Assembly (NCBI GenBank): GCA_965219535.1
Contig: CBDCNV010000002.1
Location: 240,001-272,000, forward strand
From: Opitutales bacterium
GTDB taxonomy: Bacteria; Verrucomicrobiota; Verrucomicrobiia; Opitutales; PNEW01
Direction: 5' to 3'
Length of the DNA: 32,000 bases
The notes beneath the pieces are model-generated. The model ran no database searches, was not told where the DNA came from, and saw only the letters and a list, made by a program, of their open reading frames with translations. This document shows positions 2,034 through 29,256 of the stretch, piece by piece. Made by a program: the position numbers and the translations under genes. The number at the start of each line of letters is the position of its first letter. Position 1 is the first letter of the stretch.

Positions 2034-5000
2034 TCATCGTAGTCCTCCTTCCATCCTTATCCTCGGATCGAGCCACATGAGGAGAAGATCGCTGACCAGG
2101 GTGCCAAAAACTCCCAGCATGCTGAGAATCATGAGCATCGAACCGGCTAAATACATATCTTCGGTCATCAGGGCTTCCAGCATCATTGGGCCCACGGTGG
2201 GCAGGCTTAAGACCATCGCCACGATCGCGCCTCCCGATACGAGCTGCGGAAATAAAATACCTATTCCCGAGATAAAGGGATTAAGCGCGATCCGTACCGG
2301 GTATTTCAAAAGCAGTTTAAACGGCCTGACCCCTTTAGCAAACGCGGTAACTACATAAGGTTTCTTCAATTCATCGAGTAAATTGCCACGCATCACCCGG
2401 ATCATGCTTGCAGTTCCCGTAATCCCCAGGACCACGACCGGCATCCAGAGATGTTGCATCAGGTCAACCACCTTGCCCCGGGTCCATTCCGGTTGGGTCG
2501 CGTACTCGGGTGAAAATAATCCTGACATGGTGATACCGAAATAAACGCTGCTCCAGTACATGAGTAATAACGCGAGGAGAAAGCTGGGCACGCACATCCC
2601 GATAAACCCGAGAAGGGTGAAAAAGTAATCACCGATCGAATACTGGCGCACCGCTGAATAAATACCGATGGGCAGAGCTACGGCCCAGGTAAACAGAACG
2701 GAGCCCAGTGAAATCAAAAAAGTCAGGAGGATGCGGTCGCCCACCACTTCATTTACGGGCTTTCGGTTTTGCATGGAAAAACCCATGTGCCCCTGCAGGA
2801 GCCCCTGGTCCGCTGGATCAAATGAGAGGAACCAGGGTAAGCCGAGCCAGTGAATATACTGGTATATGATCGATTCATCGAGGGGAAAGAGCTCACGCAG
2901 TTGTTCGGCTTCGGTTATGGCCGTTTGATCGTTAGTTAATTCGGCTTGTAGTATTTTCAAATCTACAAAATTACCCGGGGGCAATTGGATAATGGTGAAG
3001 ACGATGATCGATATGACGAGCAGGGTAGGCACCATGATGAGAAAACGCCTCCCGACATAAGGATGCTTTACTCCGACAAGAACCAGTCCGACGGCGATAC
3101 AACCGTAACATAATAGACGGATTAACCGGCTGAGGATTTCACCACTACTGAGGTCAGCATGTAATCGGTCAGTTGAATAGGGCGATGGCGCGATATCTGC
3201 CACCTCTCGTTTGATCTGCGCTATTGCGCCGGGGGAATCCTTCGGGTTTTTAAAAAAGAAGGTTTCGAATCCGCTACTGGATGGACTCTTATAAAGTGAG
3301 GCATAGATGGCTTTACGCGGCACGTTTCTAAAATCTTTCTTAACGATCAACACGCTGGGAGGTGATGTTGCAATATTGATATTCCAAAGATTTTCCGCCG
3401 CAATGTCCTGGATTTTATTATAAATATTTACCTGCTCCTCAAATGTGAGCGCGCTGTAAGCGGCATCAAGCAATTCCATGGACCTTCTCAGGGGGTGACC
3501 GATCGGGGGCTCAATGCGACCGGGTTTTTTCGACTCGGGGTCGCCGTATAGACCGCCATTTTGGTACCAGAGCGTGTAGCCTGAAGCTTCAATGTTTCCC
3601 GGAGAAAAACGATCAATTGAAACTAATGGATGATACTCACCCTCAACACCCCAGATGTGAAAATCCAATTTGCGGGCGGGCCGTTCTGCATTGAGAAGAT
3701 TCATGGACCGTACTCTTTCAATGGTATTTATGCCGACCTTTTTCCAGTCTTCTGCGACAAAAGAGGAGGGGCCTTCGCTGAAATTGGGAACCATGTTTAA
3801 ATACCATGCCATGCGGGTGCCGTCTTTAAAGGTGCGGAAGCCCTCCGAATCACGCCCGGTGAGTCCAATTTCATCGAATAGTTGATTGGCGCGTTCGGGG
3901 TTGTACTCGATATAACTTTTTTTTAACTTCTCATTGTAAAAGGGAGATTCTATCCCCGGTGAATTCTGTGACGGTTCTCCATATCCATGGTAAACCGCAT
4001 CGATGATATGCTGGCGATTAATGGCGAGGGAGAGAGCTTGGCGAAAACGCTTGTCGTTGAGCAATTCCCATTTATTACGGGTCTTCGGATCATTGGGATC
4101 CACGTAGCGATTGAGATTGGGGTATAATGTCCAGTCGGAACAGCCCGAAGCATACCAGTGGTAGACATCATAGTTCCCAGCATCACGCTGTGACATAAAC
4201 AGAGTATAATGAAAATAGTAGATATTAAACCCCTGCATCGTAATAGCCCCATTGGCCGCGGCAATGGGGACCAGTCTTTCCGTTTTTACGTCCATCATGA
4301 AACGGTCGACATAGGGCAACTGATTTCCCTGGGTGTCGACGGCCCAGTAATAGGGGTTGCGCACATAAGCCTGGGGAGGATTGGCTTTGTAAGTGCGGTA
4401 GATCCAGGGCCAGATGCGGGGGTGCTCCGGGTTGTTGACCAGCTTTAAGGTAATATAAAGAGCATCACTTTTGGTTATTTTATTTACCCTCATCATGGCT
4501 TCGATAAGATCGCTGTTCCCAAGTATGGGATGATAGGACTCCAGGTAGTGGCGGGGTGAGAAAAATTCAACGGTCGGAGCCAGGCGCTCAAGCAGCAATG
4601 AGTGAGAGACTGGAAAAATAAATTTCACGGTGTGAGAATCTACCATGATGATCTCTCCCTTTTTACCTCCCACTTTCATAAAAGAAGGAAACCCGATGAT
4701 CTCGTCTTTTACTTCGTGCTCCCACCAGTAGAGAATATCACCTGCGGTGAAAGGATGCCCATCGGACCACTTCATTCCCTTGCGAATGTAAAACGTCCAC
4801 TCCTTTTTATCAGGAGTGACGTCCCAGCGCTTCGCTATATGAGGGACAATGGGATACCCCATTGGCGACCACCGCACCAGGCAGGATCCGGACATCCAGG
4901 AGTCAATCGCCGTCAGGGTTTGTGGGCTGTTTGTCACCATGTTCCAGGTGCCCCCGTAATTTCCGATACCGTCAACCCCCTCGATGACCACGGGTTCAGG

Positions 5001-5318
5001 TCCCACCCGTTCCGCGACGGGGGGCAGTTTTCTCTCTTTAACCAGTTCCGCTAGAATCGGTGACTCATTTTTCGGGTACCATGCAGCGGACGGTCCCTCC
5101 GAGTAATCGACATCCCGCTGCACCGCGAATTGATCCTCTTCACTGAAAGTAAAATCCCAAAGCGCTTCATGTTCCCGCATTTTTTCCGGGGGGTAAACAA
5201 TCGGTTCCACTTCCAGTTCCGGCTTGGTCACACCCCCTCCGAAATAATAAAGACAGAAAATGAAAAGACCTGTTATGAATAAAATAAGAAATTTCGGAAA
5301 AATTACTTTTTTATTCAT
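2034..5318 (-). CDS. fused ABC importer component: family-5 (peptide/nickel-type) substrate-binding domain plus DppB/OppB-like permease domain
   Basis: Uninterrupted 1094-aa ORF. It has an N-terminal TM anchor and a ~600-aa SBP-like region. From about residue 745 the sequence is permease-like, starting RRFLIMVPTLLVISIIVFTIIQLPPGNF and ending LNPFISGIGILFPQLVSGGAIVAMVLSLPTVGPMM. Confidence 0.9.
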   Translation of the reverse strand: MNKKVIFPKFLILFITGLFIFCLYYFGGGVTKPELEVEPIVYPPEKMREHEALWDFTFSEEDQFAVQRDVDYSEGPSAAWYPKNESPILAELVKERKLPPVAERVGPEPVVIEGVDGIGNYGGTWNMVTNSPQTLTAIDSWMSGSCLVRWSPMGYPIVPHIAKRWDVTPDKKEWTFYIRKGMKWSDGHPFTAGDILYWWEHEVKDEIIGFPSFMKVGGKKGEIIMVDSHTVKFIFPVSHSLLLERLAPTVEFFSPRHYLESYHPILGNSDLIEAMMRVNKITKSDALYITLKLVNNPEHPRIWPWIYRTYKANPPQAYVRNPYYWAVDTQGNQLPYVDRFMMDVKTERLVPIAAANGAITMQGFNIYYFHYTLFMSQRDAGNYDVYHWYASGCSDWTLYPNLNRYVDPNDPKTRNKWELLNDKRFRQALSLAINRQHIIDAVYHGYGEPSQNSPGIESPFYNEKLKKSYIEYNPERANQLFDEIGLTGRDSEGFRTFKDGTRMAWYLNMVPNFSEGPSSFVAEDWKKVGINTIERVRSMNLLNAERPARKLDFHIWGVEGEYHPLVSIDRFSPGNIEASGYTLWYQNGGLYGDPESKKPGRIEPPIGHPLRRSMELLDAAYSALTFEEQVNIYNKIQDIAAENLWNINIATSPPSVLIVKKDFRNVPRKAIYASLYKSPSSSGFETFFFKNPKDSPGAIAQIKREVADIAPSPYSTDRLHADLSSGEILSRLIRLLCYGCIAVGLVLVGVKHPYVGRRFLIMVPTLLVISIIVFTIIQLPPGNFVDLKILQAELTNDQTAITEAEQLRELFPLDESIIYQYIHWLGLPWFLSFDPADQGLLQGHMGFSMQNRKPVNEVVGDRILLTFLISLGSVLFTWAVALPIGIYSAVRQYSIGDYFFTLLGFIGMCVPSFLLALLLMYWSSVYFGITMSGLFSPEYATQPEWTRGKVVDLMQHLWMPVVVLGITGTASMIRVMRGNLLDELKKPYVVTAFAKGVRPFKLLLKYPVRIALNPFISGIGILFPQLVSGGAIVAMVLSLPTVGPMMLEALMTEDMYLAGSMLMILSMLGVFGTLVSDLLLMWLDPRIRMEGGLR

Positions 5319-5863
5319 GGCACTTAATAATGCTAAAATTCCTGGTAAATGAGGAGAAAAGAATTATAGCCACAAGATGTACAAAAGGCACAAGATTTTA
5401 AACCACGAATTAAGACGAATATTTTTTAAAAGAGAAAAAATAGAGGCATAGCGTTCCACCTGATCTATCTCTTCCGCTTGCCACGCCATCCTGTCTGGCT
5501 ATAACCCTAGCGACGGATGAAGCTAGCTATGGCATAGGTGAGTTCTCACCCATTTTCTTGTTTCCCCACTTTCGACCTTCGGCTCCATCCTATTTCCCGT
5601 TCTTCCCGGACTTCCTGTAAATTTTTTTCTCTTAATCTCTATTCTGTGAAATTTGCCTACAGCCATAGCCTCGACGTCGGCTGGTGCCATATGTGGCTAT
5701 CCATTTCTTCTCGTTAGCTCCAGCTTCTTGTAAAATCTAATGCTTTCGACTTTTGAATTTCGACTTTCGGCTCCCTCGTACAATCATTTTTTGCATATAT
5801 GCGAATTAATACTTATTTAAATGATTTTTATTCTAAATATCATTAAAGCAAAGAAGGAGAACT

Positions 5864-6061
5864 ATGAAGGGATGTCTTGAAAAATTAGGTACAATTGGGG
5901 GTTATGTTGGTGCAATCATTTGTATAGCAGCAGTCATTGGACGTTTTTATGGCCACCCAACATTTTTGAGTTTCAATGCCACACATGTCTTTATCGGTGG
6001 TGTCGGAATTATCGCATTTACCCGCTGGGCCAAACTCGAAGCCGGTTCAGCGAAAGAATAA
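5864..6061 (+). CDS. small two-TM membrane protein, unknown function
   Basis: A strong SD (AAGGAG) lies 5-6 nt before the ATG. There are two hydrophobic segments (YVGAIICIAAVIG, VFIGGVGIIAF). A hairpin follows the gene. Confidence 0.55.
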   Translation: MKGCLEKLGTIGGYVGAIICIAAVIGRFYGHPTFLSFNATHVFIGGVGIIAFTRWAKLEAGSAKE

Positions 6062-6137: not shown

Positions 6138-7514
6138 CGGTACAACCAGGACATGGTTTACAGATTTAGATCAAGACATGGTTTACACTTTGTGAGGGAT
6201 GCTGAACGGTAATCGGGTTATATAGTTAAGTTAATGTTATGCGGTTTTAGAGGTTTGGCTGGCATTGTTGGGGCCGCAAGCGGCCCCAATGAAAGCAGCC
6301 GTTGAAAGGTCAATCTGACCGATTCTGAGAGTGGCAAAGTAAACATCGAAGTGTACCGTGTCTAGTGGTTTTAGTCCAACGCTCCAACCGGCGAGGGCGG
6401 TGGAGATAGGAATCTGGAAGCCATCGAGTTTGATAGACCCGCTTTTTGAGACCCGGCGAGTCATCAAATCATAGCTGATATCGGCAGGAGTGCCACCGTA
6501 AGGATGAGAGCTGTGCTGATAGATTTCAGAGGGCGTGCTCATGGCAAGAGCCGCATGGGGGCGTTCTTCATTGAAGGTCTTGCGCCACAGATCGAAGGCC
6601 ACCTGTTGGGTGCGAAGATCGTCCTGGGCATGTTTTTGCAACTCCTCTTTGATATCGCGATGGAGACGCTCATGGGCACCGTTATCCTGGGGTTTACCCG
6701 GACGTCCACGCTCGAGATTGATCCCTAAGGCCAGCCACCAGGCCGCCAGTTTGCTCAGGCCCAGGACCGCATTGGCACTGGCAAAGGGACTGCCGTTGTC
6801 GCTGCGGATGCAAGCGGGAAGTCCATAGCGTTCAAAGAGTTTTGTGAAGCATTCACGCACCGCTTCGCTACGGGCTGAACTGAGCACCCGCACCTCTAAT
6901 ACATAGCGGCTCCATTCATCCCGTACCGTCAAAGGTTCACAACGGTTGCCATCAACGGTGTGCCACCACCCTTTGAAGTCTACGCTCCACACTTCGTTAC
7001 AGCCACTGGCCTTGACGCTGCGGTAAAGGCGTCCGCTTTTTTGAGCGCTTCTGCGCCGACGCTTTTGCACCAGTCCCGCACGTTCCAAGACCCGTTTCAC
7101 GCTCGAGTCTGAGGGGGCCTTCCCGTAACGCCTCTGGTAAAGCTCGCGGATCTTGTAGGGGCCCCACGTCGGGTGATGATGCTTGAGTTTGATCAGCGTA
7201 CATACTACTGATTCGGATAGTTCCTGAACACTTCCATGCGGTCGGCGTGAGCGCTCGTGCAACCCCTCCATCCCTTCGCTCAGGAAGCGCTTCTTCCATT
7301 TATACCCTGTCGGTCGGCTGATCCCGTAGTCTTCACACAGCTCGTTCATCTTTACTCCCGGTTGCATCGATTCCAGGGCGAATTGGTATCTTTGGTCCAT
7401 TTTATTTGTTTCCTTCCATGACATCATACCCCTTACTTAGCATCCTTCTTTCTTTGGCAATCTGTAAAGGATGTCCTGAACCTTTTGTGTAAAGAATGTC
7501 TTGAACCTATACCG
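6138..7514 (-). mobile_element. IS481-family-like insertion sequence, apparently intact
   Basis: The ends are CGGTACAACCAGGACATGGTTTACA (6138-6162) and the reverse complement of TGTAAAGAATGTCTTGAACCTATACCG (7488-7514). Each end carries two copies of a TGTAAAnnATGTCyTG-type repeat (6147-6162 and 6172-6187; 7463-7482 and 7488-7507). GC content is visibly higher than the flanks. Confidence 0.7.
6237..7427 (-). CDS. DDE transposase (N-terminal HTH plus rve/integrase core), IS481-like
   Basis: 396 aa. HTH-like YGISRPTGYKWKKRF; core VWSVDFKG...IRSDNGSPF...GKPQDNGAHERLHRDIK...FNEERPH. Confidence 0.9.
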   Translation of the reverse strand: MMSWKETNKMDQRYQFALESMQPGVKMNELCEDYGISRPTGYKWKKRFLSEGMEGLHERSRRPHGSVQELSESVVCTLIKLKHHHPTWGPYKIRELYQRRYGKAPSDSSVKRVLERAGLVQKRRRRSAQKSGRLYRSVKASGCNEVWSVDFKGWWHTVDGNRCEPLTVRDEWSRYVLEVRVLSSARSEAVRECFTKLFERYGLPACIRSDNGSPFASANAVLGLSKLAAWWLALGINLERGRPGKPQDNGAHERLHRDIKEELQKHAQDDLRTQQVAFDLWRKTFNEERPHAALAMSTPSEIYQHSSHPYGGTPADISYDLMTRRVSKSGSIKLDGFQIPISTALAGWSVGLKPLDTVHFDVYFATLRIGQIDLSTAAFIGAACGPNNASQTSKTA

Positions 7515-7909
7515 ATTGAATTTACCCTCTCCTTTGACTTATAGCATTGTCACCTAAAACTCATGCGAGGTTTTAGTCTTGGTCGTGACCACGGAAACTG
7601 GGACAGTTGAAAAGTTAGTCTGGGTAACCTAAAAAGGACTCAGACAATGAAAGGCAAAAGATACACGACCGAAGAGAAGATAAGGATGCTGCGCCAGGCA
7701 GACAAAGGGAAAACGATCCTGGAAGCATGCCGCGAGAACAACATAAGCGAACAGAGCTTCCACCGCTGGAAGCGTGAGTTTGGGATGATTGATGTCAACC
7801 AAGCCAAGCGGATGAAGGAGCTCGAGAAGGAGAACGCGCGGCTAAAACGGATGCTCGCAGACAAGCTGCTGGGGATAGAGATTGTGCAGGAGACCCTCGA
7901 AAAAAATGG

Positions 7910-7932
7910 AAGATGTCGCTTACGCTCGGTAG
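7910..7932 (+). repeat. 23-nt micro-insertion (GAAGATGTCGCTTACGCTCGGTA type)
   Basis: It is absent from the homologous site in copy B (aaaaaaatgg^tgagc versus aaaaaaatgg[23 nt]taagc). The boundary is ambiguous by 1 nt. Confidence 0.7.
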
Positions 7933-8363
7933 TAAGCGCTGGGCACAAGCGGCAAGTGGCAAAGAGCCTTGTGGCTGAGGGCCAGTGTACGATGCGTGCA
8001 GCGTGCCGATACTTTCACCTGCACCGTTGCCCCTATGCGTATCGGGCCAAGCATCCGGATGCTTGGCTAACGAAACTGAAGGGGGCAGTAAGACGGTTAT
8101 CACGGCAATACGCCAGTTGGGGCTATCCGAAGATCACGAAGTTATTCAAGCACGAAGGCTGGCAAGTAGGTAAACGGCTCGTACAAGGTCTGCGAGGTGA
8201 ACTGGGCCTAGCGATGACCCCACGCAAACGAAGACGCCGGCGCCGGGGTGTCTGCACCGGGCAGCAGAGGAAGGGCGAAGATACCGGCCAGGTTTGGAGC
8301 TGGGATTTTATCCGCGATAAGATGGTTGGCGGTGGCAGTTTAAAATGCTGCCCGTGCTCGATG

Positions 8364-8408
8364 TACCGAGGAGCTGAAAGCGACGACACTCGAGCGAAGC
8401 GAAGACAT
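8364..8408 (+). repeat. 45-nt micro-insertion in OrfB of IS3 copy A
   Basis: TACCGAGGAGCTGAAAGCGACGACACTCGAGCGAAGCGAAGACAT. It is 44/45 identical to 10873-10917. Removing it restores LD-DPREC. Confidence 0.75.
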
Positions 8409-8534
8409 ACCCCCGCGAGTGTCGTGTGATCCATGTTGATCGCTATAGCAATGAGGAAACGGAGCGCGGTATCATGCAAAAACTGATCGACCGGCATGGG
8501 CCTCCACAATATATGAGTAGCGACAATGGATCGG

Positions 8535-8565
8535 TTCCGAGGAGCGAAGCGACGACATGCGAAGC
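8535..8565 (+). repeat. about 31-nt related micro-insertion in OrfB of copy A (boundaries uncertain)
   Basis: TTCCGAGGAGCGAAGCGACGACATGCGAAGC interrupts SDNGS|..|FIQSELRASLAAMKIKTLYIQP. The downstream transposase frame is shifted. Confidence 0.5.
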
Positions 8566-8609
8566 CATTTATTCAAAGCGAATTGCGAGCTTCGCTGGCT
8601 GCGATGAAA

Positions 8610-9838
8610 TGTACTAGCTACGACTTGATCTTACAGGTTACGCTGTGAGGAAGTATAAAATGTCAGCTAGCTATTGGTTCTTCATTGTCCTGGTTAAGGT
8701 GATCAACTTTTTGCGTTCAAAGCACCTTGTCCTCAAGGAAGGTCTGCATGGGGGTAGGCCCACAGCACATTTTACCCTGGTGAGTGCGTTCATGGTTATA
8801 GTGATACAGCCACTCGTCGAGATCTTTTTGTAACTGCCCTAAAGCACGGTAGATCTTCTTACGGAAGGTTACCTGATAAAACTCCTGGAGCACCGTTTTG
8901 TGGAAGCGCTCACAGATGCCATTGGTCTGGGGATGCTTCGCTTTGGTTTTGGTGTGATCAATATTATTGATCGCCAGATACAGCTCGTAAGGGTGACTGT
9001 AATGGCGTCCGCAATACTCGGTTCCACGATCGGTAAGCACCCGCAACAGTTCCATCGCGTGTTGCTCGAAAAAGGGCAAGACCTGATCGTTAAGCAACTC
9101 TGCGGCGGTGAGCGGGGTTTTCATCGTATACAACTTCGCGCAAGCCACTTTCGCATAAGTGTCGAGGAAGGTTTGCTGATAGATGCGTCCGACCCCTTTA
9201 AGCGTGCCAACATAGAAGGTATCCTGGGCACCCAGATAGCCGGGATGGGCGGTCTCAATCTCCCCGTGCAACTGATCACGCTCTTTCTTCTTCTGCAGGG
9301 CCGCCAACTGCCTCTCGGTTAAGACCAGCCCTTCTTCGGCCACTTTCTTTTCCAAGGCCTTCAACCGCAACGGGAAGGTTTGCAATTGATGGCTGATCCA
9401 CACACAACGCACTCCGGCCGGTGAGATCGCCAACCCCTCTTTCCTCAGTTCGTTGGCCACCCGCTGTTGTCCCAGCGCCGGGTTCTCCATCGCGAGCGTG
9501 ACCACCCGCTTTTCAATGCTCTCGTCAACGCGGTTTTTGAGGTTCGACTGGCTGCGACTTTTATCCAGCAGATTCTCGATTCCCCCGTCCTCGACCGCCG
9601 CTTTATACCGCTAAAAGGTATCGCCACTGAAGCCCATCACCTGACAGGCTTTTGAAACGTTGCCTGGCTCTTCAGCTAAATTTAATAATCCTACTTTATT
9701 TCTGATCATTTTTGCGTTTATTCTCATTGGGGTTACTCCTGTTTGGGGCAGCCCCCTAGGGGGCTGTTGTTGTTGTTTAACTTCCCACACAGAGTAACCC
9801 TTCTCTTGCTTCTGTCAGATCTTATCGTTACTAGTACA
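8610..9838 (-). mobile_element. IS481-family-like insertion sequence number 2, inserted into IS3 copy A
   Basis: Terminal inverted repeats are TGTACTAGCTACGA (8610-8623) and the reverse complement of TCGTTACTAGTACA (9825-9838). A perfect 7-bp direct repeat, GATGAAA, flanks it (8603-8609 and 9839-9845). Joining the flanks restores AAMKIKTLYIQP. Confidence 0.85.
8717..9727 (-). pseudogene. IS481-like transposase with one in-frame TAG (9611-9613)
   Basis: ATG at 9727, preceded by AGGAG. The reading is MRINAKMIRNKVGLLNLAEEPGNVSKACQVMGFSGDTF*RYKAAVEDGG..., which joins the 262-aa ORF (TDRGTEYCG...HPQTNGICERFH...YNHERTHQG). The stop sits where a Tyr (TAT) is expected. Confidence 0.85.
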
Positions 9839-10089
9839 GATGAAAATCAAAACCCTCTATATACAACCAGCAAGCCCTTGGCAGTACCGAGCGTTAGCGA
9901 CATCTTCCATGGATTCGTTGAGTCGTTTCATGCCCGTTTTCGCGAGCAGTGTTTAAACCGTCAACAGCTATGCACTTTAACCGAAGCAGGTGTGGTGATC
10001 GAAGATTGGTGCTGGCTTTACAATCATGTCCGTGCCCACTGCAGCCTCGGCAATTTCAGCCCACGCCACTTCGCTTTAAACATTTGGAG
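9839..10089 (+). mobile_element. IS3 copy A, 3' fragment, truncated where copy B begins
   Basis: It encodes IKTLYIQPASPWQ[insert]HGFVESFHARFREQCLNRQ...YNHVRAHCSLGNFSPRHFA. No copy-A right inverted repeat was found. Confidence 0.7.
9885..9907 (-). repeat. 23-nt micro-insertion, inverted relative to 7910-7932
   Basis: TACCGAGCGTTAGCGACATCTTC. Its reverse complement matches the 7909-7931 copy at 22 of 23 positions. Removing it restores PWQ-HGF. Confidence 0.7.
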
Positions 10090-10335
10090 TGACCCCCAAA
10101 AATCGTATCATTTACAGAGAGAGGTTATCGGGATAAACAGATAACCTCAATGAAAAGAAAAAGATACACAACAGAACAGATTATAACAATATTGCGGCAA
10201 GCCGATACCGGTAAAACGGTACAGGAAATCTGCCGTGGAAACAACCTGAGCGAACAGACTTTCTATCGCTGGCGTAAAAAATATGGCAATTTAGAACTTG
10301 CCGATGCGAAGCGATTTAAAGAGCTGGAAAAAGAA

Positions 10336-10362
10336 TTCACGAGCGCAAGCGAGAAGGCCTGA
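10336..10362 (+). repeat. about 27-nt related micro-insertion in OrfA of copy B (boundaries uncertain)
   Basis: TTCACGAGCGCAAGCGAGAAGGCCTGA is absent from the homologous KELEKENARLK site in copy A. Its length is a multiple of 3. Confidence 0.55.
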
Positions 10363-10430
10363 CATACCGAGCTGAAGAAGCTGCTCGCAGATCAAATGCT
10401 CAAGAATCAGGTAATGGAGGAAACGCTGTC

Positions 10431-10437
10431 AAAAAAA
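10431..10437 (+). promoter_or_regulatory. A7 slippery heptamer for -1 programmed frameshifting (OrfA to OrfB)
   Basis: tcAAAAAAAtgg. OrfB (MVSPKQKK...) is open in the -1 frame from 10437. This is the classic IS3-family arrangement. Confidence 0.6.
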
Positions 10438-11402
10438 TGGTGAGCCCAAAGCAGAAGAAACGAGTAGTAAAAGCTGCGGCTGAGAAAGGGTTGTGCTCGT
10501 TGCGGAGGGCTTGTGCTTATCTCAGCCTGAGTTGGTCAACGTTCAGTTACCGGCCCAAACAGGCCAGTGAGAAAGCTCAGCGGTTGGTCGAGCGGATTGT
10601 GAGCTTGTCCTGGAAACATCCCCGCTACGGTTACCGGCGCATCCGTGCCTTGCTGGTAAAGGAAGGCTGGACAACAAGCAGGAAGTTTGTCCAGGCGGTA
10701 CGACGTTCAGAAGGGCTGCAGGTAAAGCCCCCGAAAAAGGGCAGACACCGTCAAGGAGTCTCTACGGGGTCACCTACTAAAGCAAAGGGTCGCAATCACG
10801 TTTGGTCCTGGGACTTTGTCCATGATCGTACAGACAACGGCGGTCCATTAAAGATGATGACTCTAATCGATGTACCGAGGAGCTGAAAGCGACGACACTC
10901 AAGCGAAGCGAAGACATATACGCGTAAATGCCTGGATATCCGGGTCGCTCGTCAACTCACCTCAACCGATGTCCTCTCTGTGCTTAGCGAGGCCATTGAA
11001 GAGGAGGGACCTCCCAGCTATATCCGTAGTGACAACGGCAGTGAGTTCATTGCTCATCAAGTGCAGCAGTGGTTGTCCGGTAATAACATAAAGGCGATCT
11101 ATATCGATCCGGGCAGTCCCTGGCAAAACGGTTTCATCGAGTCGTTTCACAACCGCTTACGCGATGAGTGTTTGAACCGTGAAGTGTTGCTCAGCGTGGC
11201 TGAAGCGCAAGTGGTAATCGAACAATGGCGTCAGACCTATAACCATGAACATCCCCACAGTCGTTTAGGCTTCAAAAGCCCACAAGAGTTTGTCAGATTC
11301 CTTTCCGATCTTGGCCGCGTTCGGGCTACGCCCTCACTTCGCCAAGATCTCTCATATACATCAATCCTAAAACCATTAACACCCGGTAACTCTCTCACTT
11401 AA
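10437..11402 (+). pseudogene. IS3 copy B OrfB (DDE/rve), interrupted by the in-frame 45-nt insertion
   Basis: The 10437..10886 and 10980..11402 ORFs share one frame. VWSWDF...LKMMTLID[15 codons with TGA]DTRKCLDIRVAR...IRSDNGSEF...PGSPWQNGFIESFH...YNHEHPH. Confidence 0.8.
10873..10917 (+). repeat. 45-nt micro-insertion in OrfB of IS3 copy B
   Basis: TACCGAGGAGCTGAAAGCGACGACACTCAAGCGAAGCGAAGACAT, at the same position (after CGATG) as in copy A. Confidence 0.75.
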
Positions 11403-11461
11403 ATTGGTACGAAAAACGGGGTCCGATCACCTGGTTCCCGCTTTTTGAAGGATCCTATGCG

Positions 11462-12175
11462 ATGCAGGCCCGTACCGTAGAGATTGATCCTAACGGTTTC
11501 ACGTTTGACAATTGGTTCATTACCGATCCCATTACTTTAGTCGTCACTGAAGCCTCTTCGAACCTGGACTTTGTCGATCGGTCTTATGAAGATTTTATTG
11601 GTCAGGATGTGTTACCGAACGAGGAAAGTTTACTCGTCGCCTCGCTCGACTCCGGCCAGATTTCCCAAAGCACAGTGATTACAGAAATTTTCGAGACTCT
11701 TGAATCCCAGACTATTCAGGACGCGCTTATGGCACGCTTTCTTCTTACCGGCCAGTGGCCGTCACGCGATCTTCTCTTTCAGGACACCGAGGTGATTAAC
11801 GACAGCGGGTTGGGACAGCTGGTTGATTTTCTCATCCCCACCTTCCAAACGACATTCTTAAACAACGAGGAAGTTCCGGATGACTTATCGAGTGTCGAAG
11901 AGATTACCAACTTTTTCCAGATCGTCTTCACTAACAAGTATGGCGTTGCACCCGCCGGTGAACAGACCGCTACTGGTTTGACCAGGATTCAATTCTCCGG
12001 CGCGGAATTATTCCTCGAACGATTCGTAACCGACAACGATGTAACTTCTTTCGGAAATTCCAGCCGGACAACTATCCTTGGCATTCCGAATCCGCCAAAC
12101 GACCGCTTACGGGAATTTGCCGACGCCGGCTCTCTTCCAAATCAATCTATTAAGGATAACGCCTTCGACAACTGA
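11462..12175 (+). CDS. hypothetical protein, probably 5'-truncated by the IS cluster
   Basis: 237-aa ORF. The frame stays open upstream to the IS3 copy B end at 11429. No signal peptide or recognisable domain was found. Confidence 0.45.
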   Translation: MQARTVEIDPNGFTFDNWFITDPITLVVTEASSNLDFVDRSYEDFIGQDVLPNEESLLVASLDSGQISQSTVITEIFETLESQTIQDALMARFLLTGQWPSRDLLFQDTEVINDSGLGQLVDFLIPTFQTTFLNNEEVPDDLSSVEEITNFFQIVFTNKYGVAPAGEQTATGLTRIQFSGAELFLERFVTDNDVTSFGNSSRTTILGIPNPPNDRLREFADAGSLPNQSIKDNAFDN

Positions 12176-13204: not shown

Positions 13205-13280
13205 CCTAACCGCTTAATCGCATTCACGCTTTATCGCTTTATCGCTTTATCGCATCCACACGTTATCGCATCCACGCGTT
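13205..13280. repeat. ATCGC-rich dispersed/tandem repeat tract
   Basis: (CGCTTTAT)x3 at 13228-13251, then a (CGCATCCACrCGTTAT)-type unit twice. The tract is homologous to the reverse complement of 23812-23870. It abuts the RND stop codon. Confidence 0.6.
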
Positions 13281-23698: not shown

Positions 23699-23811
23699 CT
23701 TCTGATTAATGCGAACAATGTTCGTTTAATTTGAAACGTAAAATCTTAAATCGTTCCCCTGAAACGACAATTGAATATTCTAAACTGTCTCAACGCTTAG
23801 GCAATTATAAT

Positions 23812-23870
23812 TGCGATGATGCGTGCATGCGATAAAGAGAATATGCGATTAAGCGGTAATGCGAAAATTG
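23812..23870. repeat. ATCGC-rich repeat, inverted copy of the 13205-13280 tract
   Basis: The reverse complement reads CATTACCGCTTAATCGCATATTCTCTTTATCGCATGCACGCATCATCGCAAT. Compare CCTAACCGCTTAATCGCATTCACGCTTTATCGC...ATCCACACGTTATCGCA. Confidence 0.55.
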
Positions 23871-23871
23871 C

Positions 23872-24126
23872 CCCTCTTGTCATTGCGAGGAACATAGAGA
23901 CAAAGCAATCCAGGGGTATTTCAATACGTGACCGTCATTCCCTTGTAATAGATGATGTGGCTGCGCAACCGAGGAGTGACATATACCATAAGTACAAGAG
24001 CGAAACATCTTATGAATATCCCAACATCCATTGATTTACTTTACACACCCGGCTTTCCCCTGGAATGGAAGATGTCGCTGCGCTCGGTAGCCGCGTCGCA
24101 TTGCTCCTCGCAATGACAATATGAGG
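23872..24126 (+). mobile_element. MITE-like element, copy 1
   Basis: Terminal inverted repeats are CCTCTTGTCATTGCGAGG and CCTCGCAATGACAA(TAT)GAGG. It aligns along its length with 29020-29256. It carries a nested 22-nt insertion. Confidence 0.7.
24068..24089 (+). repeat. 22-nt micro-insertion nested in MITE copy 1
   Basis: GAAGATGTCGCTGCGCTCGGTA. MITE copy 2 lacks it (cccctgga^ttgccgcgtc). It matches the 23-mers at 7910 and 9885 apart from the centre. Confidence 0.65.
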
Positions 24127-24200
24127 AATATAAAGATGAGAATTATAAATGATACCCGTTAGGCTCAATCCGCATTCAGCAATCCGACATCCGCAATTCT

Positions 24201-24551
24201 TCAGATTTTCACTCCCGCCTTATTGAGAAAAAATACCATGGTGAAATAAAGAAGAATCATTAAGAGAGTTGATATCCCCAAGCTGAAATAAAAATTAATT
24301 TCTTTTTTTAATAATAGAGGAAGCAAAAGAAAAAGAGACAAAGAGGGGATCACTAACCAGAAGATACCGGTAGAAAGTCCAGCCACTTTCTCGACATTGG
24401 CAGTATCGACGTAAAGCCAGATCATCGCCAGGTAAGATGTCAGGGGTAGTGAAGCGAGTAAGCTTCCCATGAACGAACTTCGCTTTGCGATTTCGGATAT
24501 GAGTATCACCAGGGTTGTGGTGATTAAGATTTTAGTTATATAATAAGCCAT
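24201..24551 (-). CDS. DUF3147-like small membrane protein
   Basis: 116 aa with four hydrophobic segments. SEIAKRS...LASLPL...IWLYVDT...IFWLVIPSL resembles DUF3147 as I remember it. Confidence 0.7.
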   Translation of the reverse strand: MAYYITKILITTTLVILISEIAKRSSFMGSLLASLPLTSYLAMIWLYVDTANVEKVAGLSTGIFWLVIPSLSLFLLLPLLLKKEINFYFSLGISTLLMILLYFTMVFFLNKAGVKI

Positions 24552-28953: not shown

Positions 28954-29019
28954 AGTTGTAAAAAAATGTCAAGCTCCCTCTTAAAAACACCCGAAATCAA
29001 CCCCTATTTTTCACTTTTC

Positions 29020-29256
29020 CCCCTTCTTTTCATTGCGAGGGAGACTGACAGCCGACTGCGGCCATTCGGGGGGATATCAATACGTAACCGACATTCACCT
29101 GGAATGGATGATATCGTCATGCAGCCGTGGGGCGACATCTTCCAAAAGCACACAAGCGGAACGTCATATGAAAATCCTAACATCTATAGATCTACATTAC
29201 GCAACCAGCATTCCCCTGGATTGCCGCGTCACGTTGCTCCTCGCAATGACAAGAGG
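29020..29256 (+). mobile_element. MITE-like element, copy 2
   Basis: Terminal inverted repeats are CCTTCTTTTCATTGCGAGG and CCTCGCAATGACAAGAGG. It is collinear with copy 1. It lies about 130 bp downstream of the rRNA operon terminator. Confidence 0.7.

Follow-up and report, generated by a model that had tools for sequence, protein, structure and literature searches.

The window analysed here, a stretch of 32,000 nucleotides (nt) from an Opitutales bacterium (contig CBDCNV010000002.1, positions 240,001 to 272,000), contains two copies of a 44-nt element which interrupts, at the same codon, the OrfB gene of two diverged insertion sequences (IS) of the IS3 family, hereafter copy A and copy B. The element is an acquired interruption, polymorphic for presence and absence in both IS subfamilies (A-like and B-like), and it is one member of a family of non-coding, purine-rich inserts of 24-44 nt. 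On balance, this family probably represents ultra-small insertional elements with a homing-like, site-specific spread into the codons of IS3-family transposase genes.

The earlier note on this DNA had described a near-identical 45-nt insertion in two transposase genes. An exact search of the window for this 45-mer pattern returned only 8364-8408 and 10873-10917, both on the + strand, against 0 matches in 100 shuffles. The two copies are identical at 44 of 45 positions, as had been stated, and are thus one base apart (43/44 over the element proper). The A/B identity starts directly after ..TCGATG, in agreement with the insertion point given at that time (directly after CGATG), and ends 1-2 nt beyond the 45-mer; because it ends at the insert boundaries, a local conversion patch between A and B is ruled out. 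Over the flanking 30-120 nt, A and B agree at 63-67% of positions upstream of the insert and at 53-60% downstream of it, and the intact OrfB proteins of the A-like and B-like hosts share 48% identity, so that the insert is indeed far better conserved than its hosts. The event itself had to be redefined. It is not a clean insertion of 45 nt and 15 codons, but an exchange of 44 nt (TACCGAG...GACA) for the AR of a Glu codon, with a net gain of 42 nt, and the last T of the 45-mer belongs to the host. The native allele reads TCGATG-AR-TAYAC, i.e. D-E-Y-T-R (empty target in its IS context: TCGATGAATATACGCG), whereas the restored alignment proposed previously (LD-DPREC / ID-DTRKC) misses the lost Glu. 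The in-frame TGA announced for copy B was found, and copy A has one as well, both in the OrfB frame (Table 1).

Both hosts are IS3-family (IS407-like) elements. They show the features of this family: two open reading frames (ORFs), an OrfA with a helix-turn-helix (HTH_Tnp_1 in Pfam), an OrfB of the DDE/rve type (rve, rve_3 and HTH_21) and, between the two, an A-rich -1 frameshift site (A6-7 then TGG). Their ends, TGGAGTGACCCC... and ...GGGGTCCGATCA, are terminal inverted repeats, individual IS copies occupy separate loci and are flanked by 4-bp target duplications of their own, and the nearest plasmid homologues are annotated as 'IS3 family transposase'. Copy A has a nested IS inside, lost its 3' end where copy B inserted, and carries three tiny inserts besides the 45-mer, one of them inverted. 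Copy B is intact except for two inserts, which makes the event in the window a recent one.

Empty sites were found in both subfamilies. B-like empty alleles (..ATCGATG-AA/AG-TATACGCG..; I-D-E-Y-T-R) occur in L023 copy 2, L016, L028, L035 and L036-43, and A-like ones (..CTCGA(T/C)G-AG-TACACCCG..; L-D-E-Y-T-R) in L011, L013, L016, L024, L037, L039 and L041. IS copies with an empty site are also present as bystanders at the same loci as filled ones, and filled and empty type-2 alleles have identical flanks. A protein search with the repaired OrfB retrieved full-length insert-free proteins of 306-307 amino acids, 91-94% identical to copy B and reading IDEYTRKC, whose loci show recent insertions of intact IS copies into genes; an A-like IS that is intact and free of the insert exists too. 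Copy B and its 94%-identical relatives differ by the presence or absence of the insert, and more distant IS3-family relatives are without it. The empty state is ancestral, because empty alleles keep the Glu codon that filled alleles lack. The empty sites in both subfamilies and the intact insert-free copies therefore identify the insert as an acquired, polymorphic interruption, and they rule out a native loop or a recoding element. The proposal of a recent site-specific acquisition rather than decay consequently stands, with filled and empty alleles in both subfamilies, some of them with identical flanks. Two observations had been named that would speak against it, namely a 45-mer that occurs nowhere else and lies in a longer identical tract, and intact clade members that natively encode the 15 codons. 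Neither was made: the core occurs 33 more times elsewhere, the surrounding tract is not identical, and intact members read IDEYTRKC or LDEYTREC.

The alignment of full IS copies gave a list of further sites with similar inserts, at least seven in these IS elements, of which the 45-mer is the site-3 member (Table 1). Common features are a T[AT]CCGAG 5' end, mini-hairpin motifs of the GC-loop-GC (GCGAAGC) type and a GACAT..CA tail; short units have co-varying stems (GC/GC, AC/GT, GGC/GCC, GGGC/GCCC and GCGT/ACGC). One junction rule applies to all eight sites: the native N-AR-N becomes N-[T(A/T)CCGAG...CA]-N, with the loss of two host bases. The bases on the 5' side vary (GATG, AGTG, TCCG, TGGC, GCAG, TTAC, AGAG, CGGC). 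The inserts at sites 1, 4 and 6 break the frame or add a stop codon, site 5 is the only one whose insert gene callers read through, and the site-1 insert is absent from all other B-like copies examined. Family members are also present at other, non-IS loci. The window has one of them (TACCGAGCGCAGCGACATCTTCCA), placed in one arm of a palindromic repeat of ~260 bp at 23867-24129; a second copy of this repeat, at 29010-29256, lacks it. The earlier suggestion had been a tiny mobile unit, a targeted conversion or a device that disables transposases. The 45-mer is indeed one of several related tiny inserts; a specificity of the process for transposases is not supported, since a member resides in a non-coding palindromic repeat. 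A reading of the short units as excision footprints or solo termini was dropped, as no parent element with these termini was found. Parses by hand as a tRNA-like CCA end, as circle integration at a native TACCGAG, or as TA or other target duplications gave none that fits all sites.

Some matches between inserts and native sequence were also observed. The native OrfA of copy B (10365-10381) reads AAT ACC GAG CTG AAG AAG (..NTELKK..), i.e. TACCGAG then CTGAA, to which the start of the 45-mer (8364-8384; TACCGAG-GAG-CTGAA) is identical at 12/12 nt when a gap of 3 nt is admitted. In copy B, this native TACCGAG directly adjoins the site-1 insert, and the native A-like site 4 (GGT TCC GAG) holds TTCCGAG, the 5' end of the site-4 element. 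These matches may be due to chance, or they may hint at the origin or the targeting of the elements.

B-like copies have the site combinations {none}, {1,3}, {3}, {4}, {4-short}, {6}, {3,4}, {4,5} and {3,4,5,6}, and A-like copies have {none}, {4}, {2,4}, {2,3,4} and {2,3,4,5}; the sites assort almost independently among close IS relatives. At the four OrfB sites, site and insert variant pair one to one, and this pairing is conserved across subfamilies. Furthermore, the site-6 variant is found at the homologous RD-E-CLN codon of a third, C-like IS, whose flanks at this site are ~67% identical to the B-like ones with a longest identical run of 8 nt. A patch of 37-44 nt cannot be moved between such diverged sequences by RecA-type recombination, and a random choice of targets would not yield the pairing of site and variant. 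The same insert is found at the homologous site of diverged hosts, where filled and empty alleles coexist; the same variant at the homologous codon of diverged hosts has the signature of homing.

A scan of one genome per species for the 21-nt core of the 45-mer gave 33 loci, all in two Opitutales metagenome-assembled genomes (MAGs) and all at one position within a single IS clade, spanning at least four IS subfamilies in which the insert is near-invariant while the flanks diverge. All gathered sequence together holds 36 filled copies, with 4 insert sequence variants in 9 flank contexts. The 45-mer had no match in phage and plasmid sequences, and an origin from either was dropped. The insert load is in sharp contrast between two sister genomes: in CBDANS01 (L002-L034) every one of 30 copies has the 45-mer, and ERZ25766727 (L036-L040) carries, all of them intact, five identical type-2 IS copies free of the insert plus two A-like ones.

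The consequences for the hosts are of two kinds. The TGA of the 45-mer is predicted to truncate OrfAB between the first and the second catalytic Asp. Filled IS copies are found at different loci, bounded by 4-bp duplications of their own: insert-bearing copies were later amplified as whole units. As the defective units were probably amplified in trans, the 45-mer could reach a high copy number in one genome. All the type-2 copies checked (16/16) have a TAG on top of their inserts. Besides, an in-frame TAG at OrfB codon ~24 (CSF*RAC instead of the intact CSLRRAC) was noted in L002, L005, L016 and L023 and is common to several B-like and type-2 copies also bearing tiny inserts, and L016 and L023 have a 1-nt indel of OrfA in common. 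The second consequence is recombination. In L016, two inverted IS copies ~1 kb apart, at 3049-4501 (-) and 4443-5877 (+), are reciprocal A-like/B-like chimeras with the crossover exactly in the 33-nt site-4 insert: one is 94.9% B-like upstream and 89.0% A-like downstream, the other 87.5% A-like and 94.0% B-like. This configuration points to an inversion by recombination inside the tiny insert.

The two junctions of the inserts differ. The 5' junction is invariant, and the 3' junction is variable with a 2-nt loss as the usual outcome; at site 5 the loss of host bases differs by one between A-like and B-like filled alleles. In a short site-4 allele (L035, 2047-2100, protein P0010; GGCAGTG-TTCCGAGGAGCGAAGCG-AGTG-AGTTC), only the first 17 nt of the element are present, followed by a duplication of 4 nt (AGTG). 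The Glu codon survives, and the outcome is an in-frame insertion of 7 amino acids in an otherwise intact OrfB. A possible course of events would be a cut after the G/C that precedes AR, followed by copying of a filled site or of a free element from its TACCGAG end, primed by the exposed 3' end, and by imprecise rejoining of the far end; copying from the TACCGAG end would explain why the 5' junction is invariant and the 3' junction variable. Three deletion alleles end at or near insert sites and may be scars of breaks: in P0019, ..MMTLID is joined straight to PGSPWQNGF via an ATCGAT repeat at site 3, in P0021 the deletion starts ~30 nt past site 3 and stops ~12 nt past site 4, and in L005 CAA is missing exactly at site 5, the only type-2 copy with this 3-nt deletion. 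More speculatively, and with considerable doubt on our side, the elements could be a hitherto unrecognised class of ultra-small (24-44 nt) homing elements and hyperparasites of IS, propagated by a site-directed nick-and-copy activity that replaces two target bases or by a host anti-IS system. It is equally tentative that, in either case, they switch off IS copies and provide starting points for recombination between diverged ones. On the homing-like reading favoured here, the elements probably act as selfish hyperparasites of IS, which kill transposase genes and create short islands of identity in which diverged copies recombine.

Several results weigh against a homing-like spread. No enzyme or donor for the elements was identified. 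In the genomes scanned, the 21-mer core has no free, master or longer parent copy outside the IS site, which leaves the first insertion at each site unexplained. The consensus of the cut site, S-AR-W, is far too weak to specify the sites. Signs of flank co-conversion are thin and comprise 1-2 bases only: in L015 the insert is followed by 8 nt of B-like sequence (3' flank TATACGCG), and the L024 group has a B-like codon directly downstream of the site-4 insert. The breadth is narrow, with no match to the 21-mer core in JGI metagenomes, and the filled genomes apparently all belong to one family of long-read assemblies from related samples. The 45-mer has no significant structure, folding worse than shuffled sequence (DNA z = +1.5). 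Finally, a sub-class ending in ..GAGAAGGCCTGACA occupies different sites in B-like and C-like OrfA as well as a non-IS locus, a pattern which looks more like transposition than homing. Together with the short units in palindromic repeats, its varied sites mean that some transposition-like dispersal must exist.

Such dispersal is the core of an alternative that we consider unlikely, in which the inserts are mini-transposons mobilised in trans by an HUH/Y1 single-stranded DNA transposase (RAYT- or IS200/IS605-like) encoded elsewhere, which would recognise their 5' end and mini-hairpins and place free copies into preferred targets, and IS genes are simply tolerant of such insertions. The ..GAGAAGGCCTGACA sub-class at different sites in different IS elements, the members outside IS and the palindromic-repeat modules in many metagenomes would then be expected, as would the conserved 5' end, the d(GNA)-type mini-hairpins, the co-varying stems of the short units and the lack of both terminal inverted repeats and target duplication; in a sample not selected for the 45-mer, the density of inserts is by our own count ~19-fold higher in IS DNA than elsewhere. 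However, loose targeting predicts something other than a one-to-one pairing of site and variant at four OrfB sites of hosts that are 48% identical. The insertions also share no conserved tetranucleotide on the 5' side of the target, they cost the host two bases whereas those of the IS200/IS605 type cost none, the 45-mer is no palindrome, and no Y1 transposase is encoded in the annotated loci L036-L043, a weak negative since whole genomes were not scanned. Quite improbable in our view is an origin as scars of a defence against IS, run by the host or by a rival element, in which a sequence-directed nuclease would cut codons of conserved motifs and repair would use a dedicated short template; the inserts would then be by-products rather than selfish elements. 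Members of the same family also lie in intergenic DNA and in palindromic repeats that do not code, the site-5 insert keeps the frame, is free of stops and is read through by gene callers, and no candidate system was identified, even though the sites are Glu/Gln codons in the most conserved motifs (DEYTR, SDNGSEF, PWQNG, RDECLN), most inserts cause a stop or a frameshift, the deletions in P0019, P0021 and L005 (3 nt) have endpoints at or close to the sites, and one related genome holds nothing but clean, intact IS copies while another has 30 copies hit.

If the insertion had instead preceded the A-like/B-like split and had been kept uniform by gene conversion, the empty sites would be secondary losses. 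The L016 chimeras do show recombination in inserts, and an identity island of 33-44 nt could seed conversion; but each loss would have to recreate the Glu codon GAR exactly, several times and in both subfamilies, the more distant IS3-family relatives have no insert, and copy B already differs in this respect from relatives 94% identical to it, which makes an ancient insertion very improbable. Still less credible is programmed recoding, by UGA read-through or by a hop from the AGC before UGA to an in-frame AGC 18 nt downstream, through which transposase would continue to be produced in regulated amounts. The net gain of 42 nt preserves the frame, the OrfB of copy B is otherwise intact, UGA directly follows AGC, and 6 codons further on there is another AGC in frame (AGU in L015), a layout that resembles the take-off and landing sites of T4 gene 60 (bioRxiv 10.1101/2022.08.31.505936). 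Yet the AGC-UGA...AGC arrangement is near chance expectation in low-complexity sequence (~0.16 by our own estimate), and the sister inserts at sites 1 and 6 lack the matched codon pair. Most filled copies also have the +31 frameshift insert or a TAG, and there is neither an Rfam family nor a significant structure. A programmed bypass of the gene 60 type was rejected, because intact insert-free copies have transposed recently and the gene does not depend on the element. An artefact of assembly or sequencing has a negligible probability. It is true that all insert-bearing genomes are MAGs or contigs of long-read metagenome assemblies from related ENA projects with similar naming, but the inserts occur in at least five independent assemblies, have heritable sequence variants (GAAGCCA, AGTG) and one junction rule across eight sites, have no adapter-like, plasmid or phage match, and show a presence/absence that tracks IS subfamily structure as well as reciprocal recombination products.

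Among known systems, the small dispersed repeats (SDRs) of heterocyst-forming cyanobacteria, reportedly 21-27 nt long, have much in common with these inserts. They are tens of nt long and dispersed, often inside other mobile elements, with conserved ends, a variable centre and no known mechanism, and their mobility was deduced from their presence or absence in DNA that is identical in other respects. Their sequence is different, their hosts belong to another phylum, and SDRs are not known to hit the same codon of diverged transposase genes or to replace two target bases. Yeast mitochondrial GC clusters, the 'byps' of Magnusiomyces and the palindromic elements of Rickettsia are selfish inserts of 30-150 nt in coding genes, of which some are facultative from one allele to another and some propagate by biased conversion; in contrast to the present elements, they are tolerated in frame or bypassed so that the host gene works, they are organellar or Rickettsia-specific, and their sequences are unrelated. 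The target-primed insertion of R2 is accompanied by a 2-bp target deletion. One constant and one variable junction, the 2-nt loss and truncated copies would be paralleled there, but neither a reverse transcriptase nor an RNA intermediate is in evidence here and the likeness is a mechanistic analogy only.

A precedent for a homing cassette is the MobA/mobE homing-endonuclease cassette with the coding gap of T4 gene 60 (bioRxiv 10.1101/2022.08.31.505936). Homing cassettes, group I introns and inteins share with the present elements the recurrent independent insertion at one position of a conserved motif in diverged hosts, the sharp boundaries and an insert far better conserved than its host. They have, however, their own endonuclease, ribozyme or splicing domain and leave the host gene functional, whereas the elements described here are 24-44 nt long, encode nothing and inactivate the host gene. 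Repetitive extragenic palindromic (REP) sequences and REPINs are extragenic, palindromic, typically inverted doublets, mobilised by RAYT (HUH Y1) (PMC3116915). Together with IS200/IS605 miniatures, they resemble the family in being short and non-autonomous, without terminal inverted repeats or target duplication, in having hairpins with compensatory changes and in occurring as modules of composite repeats. The 45-mer is an intragenic singlet, purine-rich and not palindromic, with two target bases lost, and its assignment to REP/REPIN was rejected on its intragenic singlet state and its fold. Its assignment to miniature inverted-repeat transposable elements was rejected as well, given the absence of terminal inverted repeats, as the ends 5' TACCGAG and 3' ..GAAGACA are not complementary and no arms pair in the fold, and the loss of two bases instead of a duplication (the only duplication seen in the family is the 4-nt AGTG of the aberrant L035 allele), and so was its assignment to IS200/IS605 miniatures, which have a fixed 5' tetra- or pentanucleotide where the flanks here vary and 2 nt are lost. 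No known structured RNA (intron, ribozyme or riboswitch) was found in Rfam: a search of 7500-11500 and 23700-24300 gave no match at E<=1, and only rRNA matches were above the gathering threshold. In summary, the nearest precedents are cyanobacterial SDRs, endonuclease-driven homing cassettes and REP/REPINs, although the 45-mer is no member of the last. The elements belong with very small mobile repeats, and their unusual part is the homing-like specificity for transposase codons.

Table 1. Insertion sequences and tiny inserts discussed in the text (positions in the window; in motifs of three terms, the middle term is or holds the replaced bases)
Feature	Position	Strand	Remarks
44-nt element, copy A (TACCGAG...GACA)	8364..8407	+	OrfB of A-like IS; replaces AR of Glu in L-D-E-Y-T-R; TGA 8375-8377
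44-nt element, copy B	10873..10916	+	OrfB of B-like IS; replaces AA of Glu in I-D-E-Y-T-R; TGA 10884-10886
Site-1 insert, TTCACGAGCGCAAGCGAGAAGGCCTGACA	10336..10364	+	OrfA of copy B; 29 nt, net +27; in-frame TGA 10360-10362
Site-2 insert, TACCGAGCGTAAGCGACATCTTCCA	7907..7931	-	Inverted; at A7 frameshift site of copy A; native AAAAAAA-CT-GTAAGC
Site 3 (45-mer)	8364..8407, 10873..10916	+	D-E-YTR codon
Site-4 insert, TTCCGAGGAGCGAAGCGACGACATGCGAAGCCA	8535..8567	+	Replaces AG of Glu in S-D-N-G-S-E-F; 33 nt, net +31, frameshift; absent from copy B
Site-5 insert			PW-Q-NG; 44 nt, net +42, in frame, no stop
Site-5' insert, TACCGAGCGTTAGCGACATCTTCCA	9885..9909	+	P-W-Q-N-G of copy A (winA) only
Site-6 insert			RD-E-CLN; 37 nt, net +35, carries TAG
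Family member TACCGAGCGCAGCGACATCTTCCA	24066..24089	-	Arm of ~260-bp palindromic repeat (23867-24129), at GCGGC-AA-TCC
Copy A, A-like IS3-family (IS407-like) element	7566..10084	+	Decayed; 88.7% to intact A-like reference in L037
Copy B (winB), B-like IS3-family element	10085..11429	+	OrfA and OrfB intact save two tiny inserts
Nested IS481-like element in copy A	8610..9838	-	Terminal repeats TGTACTAG..; 7-bp duplication GATGAAA

The window is chromosomal, with 23S and 5S rRNA genes, a resistance-nodulation-division (RND) efflux operon and a gene for elongation factor G (EF-G). An alternative genetic code is ruled out, as TGA is the commonest ordinary stop codon here (7/13). The nested IS481-like element of copy A, whose transposase has an internal stop, is context only and lies outside the family of tiny inserts. 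An intact IS481-family element with a 396-amino-acid transposase is located at 6147-7478 (inverted repeats 6147-6166 and 7459-7478), and these two elements form, with copies A and B, a ~5.3-kb cluster of IS nested in IS. The two copies of the palindromic repeat have the arms GTCATTGCGAGGA...GCGGCAATCCAGGGG, and one copy lies just downstream of the 5S rRNA gene. The repeat has no Rfam match, and a literature search for its motif gave primer coincidences only; related repeats with a short TACCGAGC-loop-GCGACATCTTCCA module are present in marine, sludge and soil metagenomes (L047, L051, L054-56, L059). Tandem runs of heptamer-like TTATCGC / GCGATAA units, at 13209-13270 and 23812-23864, form an inverted pair of 46-53 nt, 10.5 kb apart, of which one member adjoins the palindromic repeat.

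If the homing-like reading is true, DNA of ~25-45 nt would be mobile with a site specificity at the level of a codon, in hosts that share about half of their protein sequence; to our knowledge, no bacterial transposition or homing mechanism accounts for such a specificity. The elements would add a further layer of parasitism on IS, in which copies with killed transposases are left mobile only in trans, and their short islands of identity would let diverged IS copies recombine, as in the L016 chimeras and their inversion. In annotation, these inserts split transposase ORFs and could pass for recoding sites.

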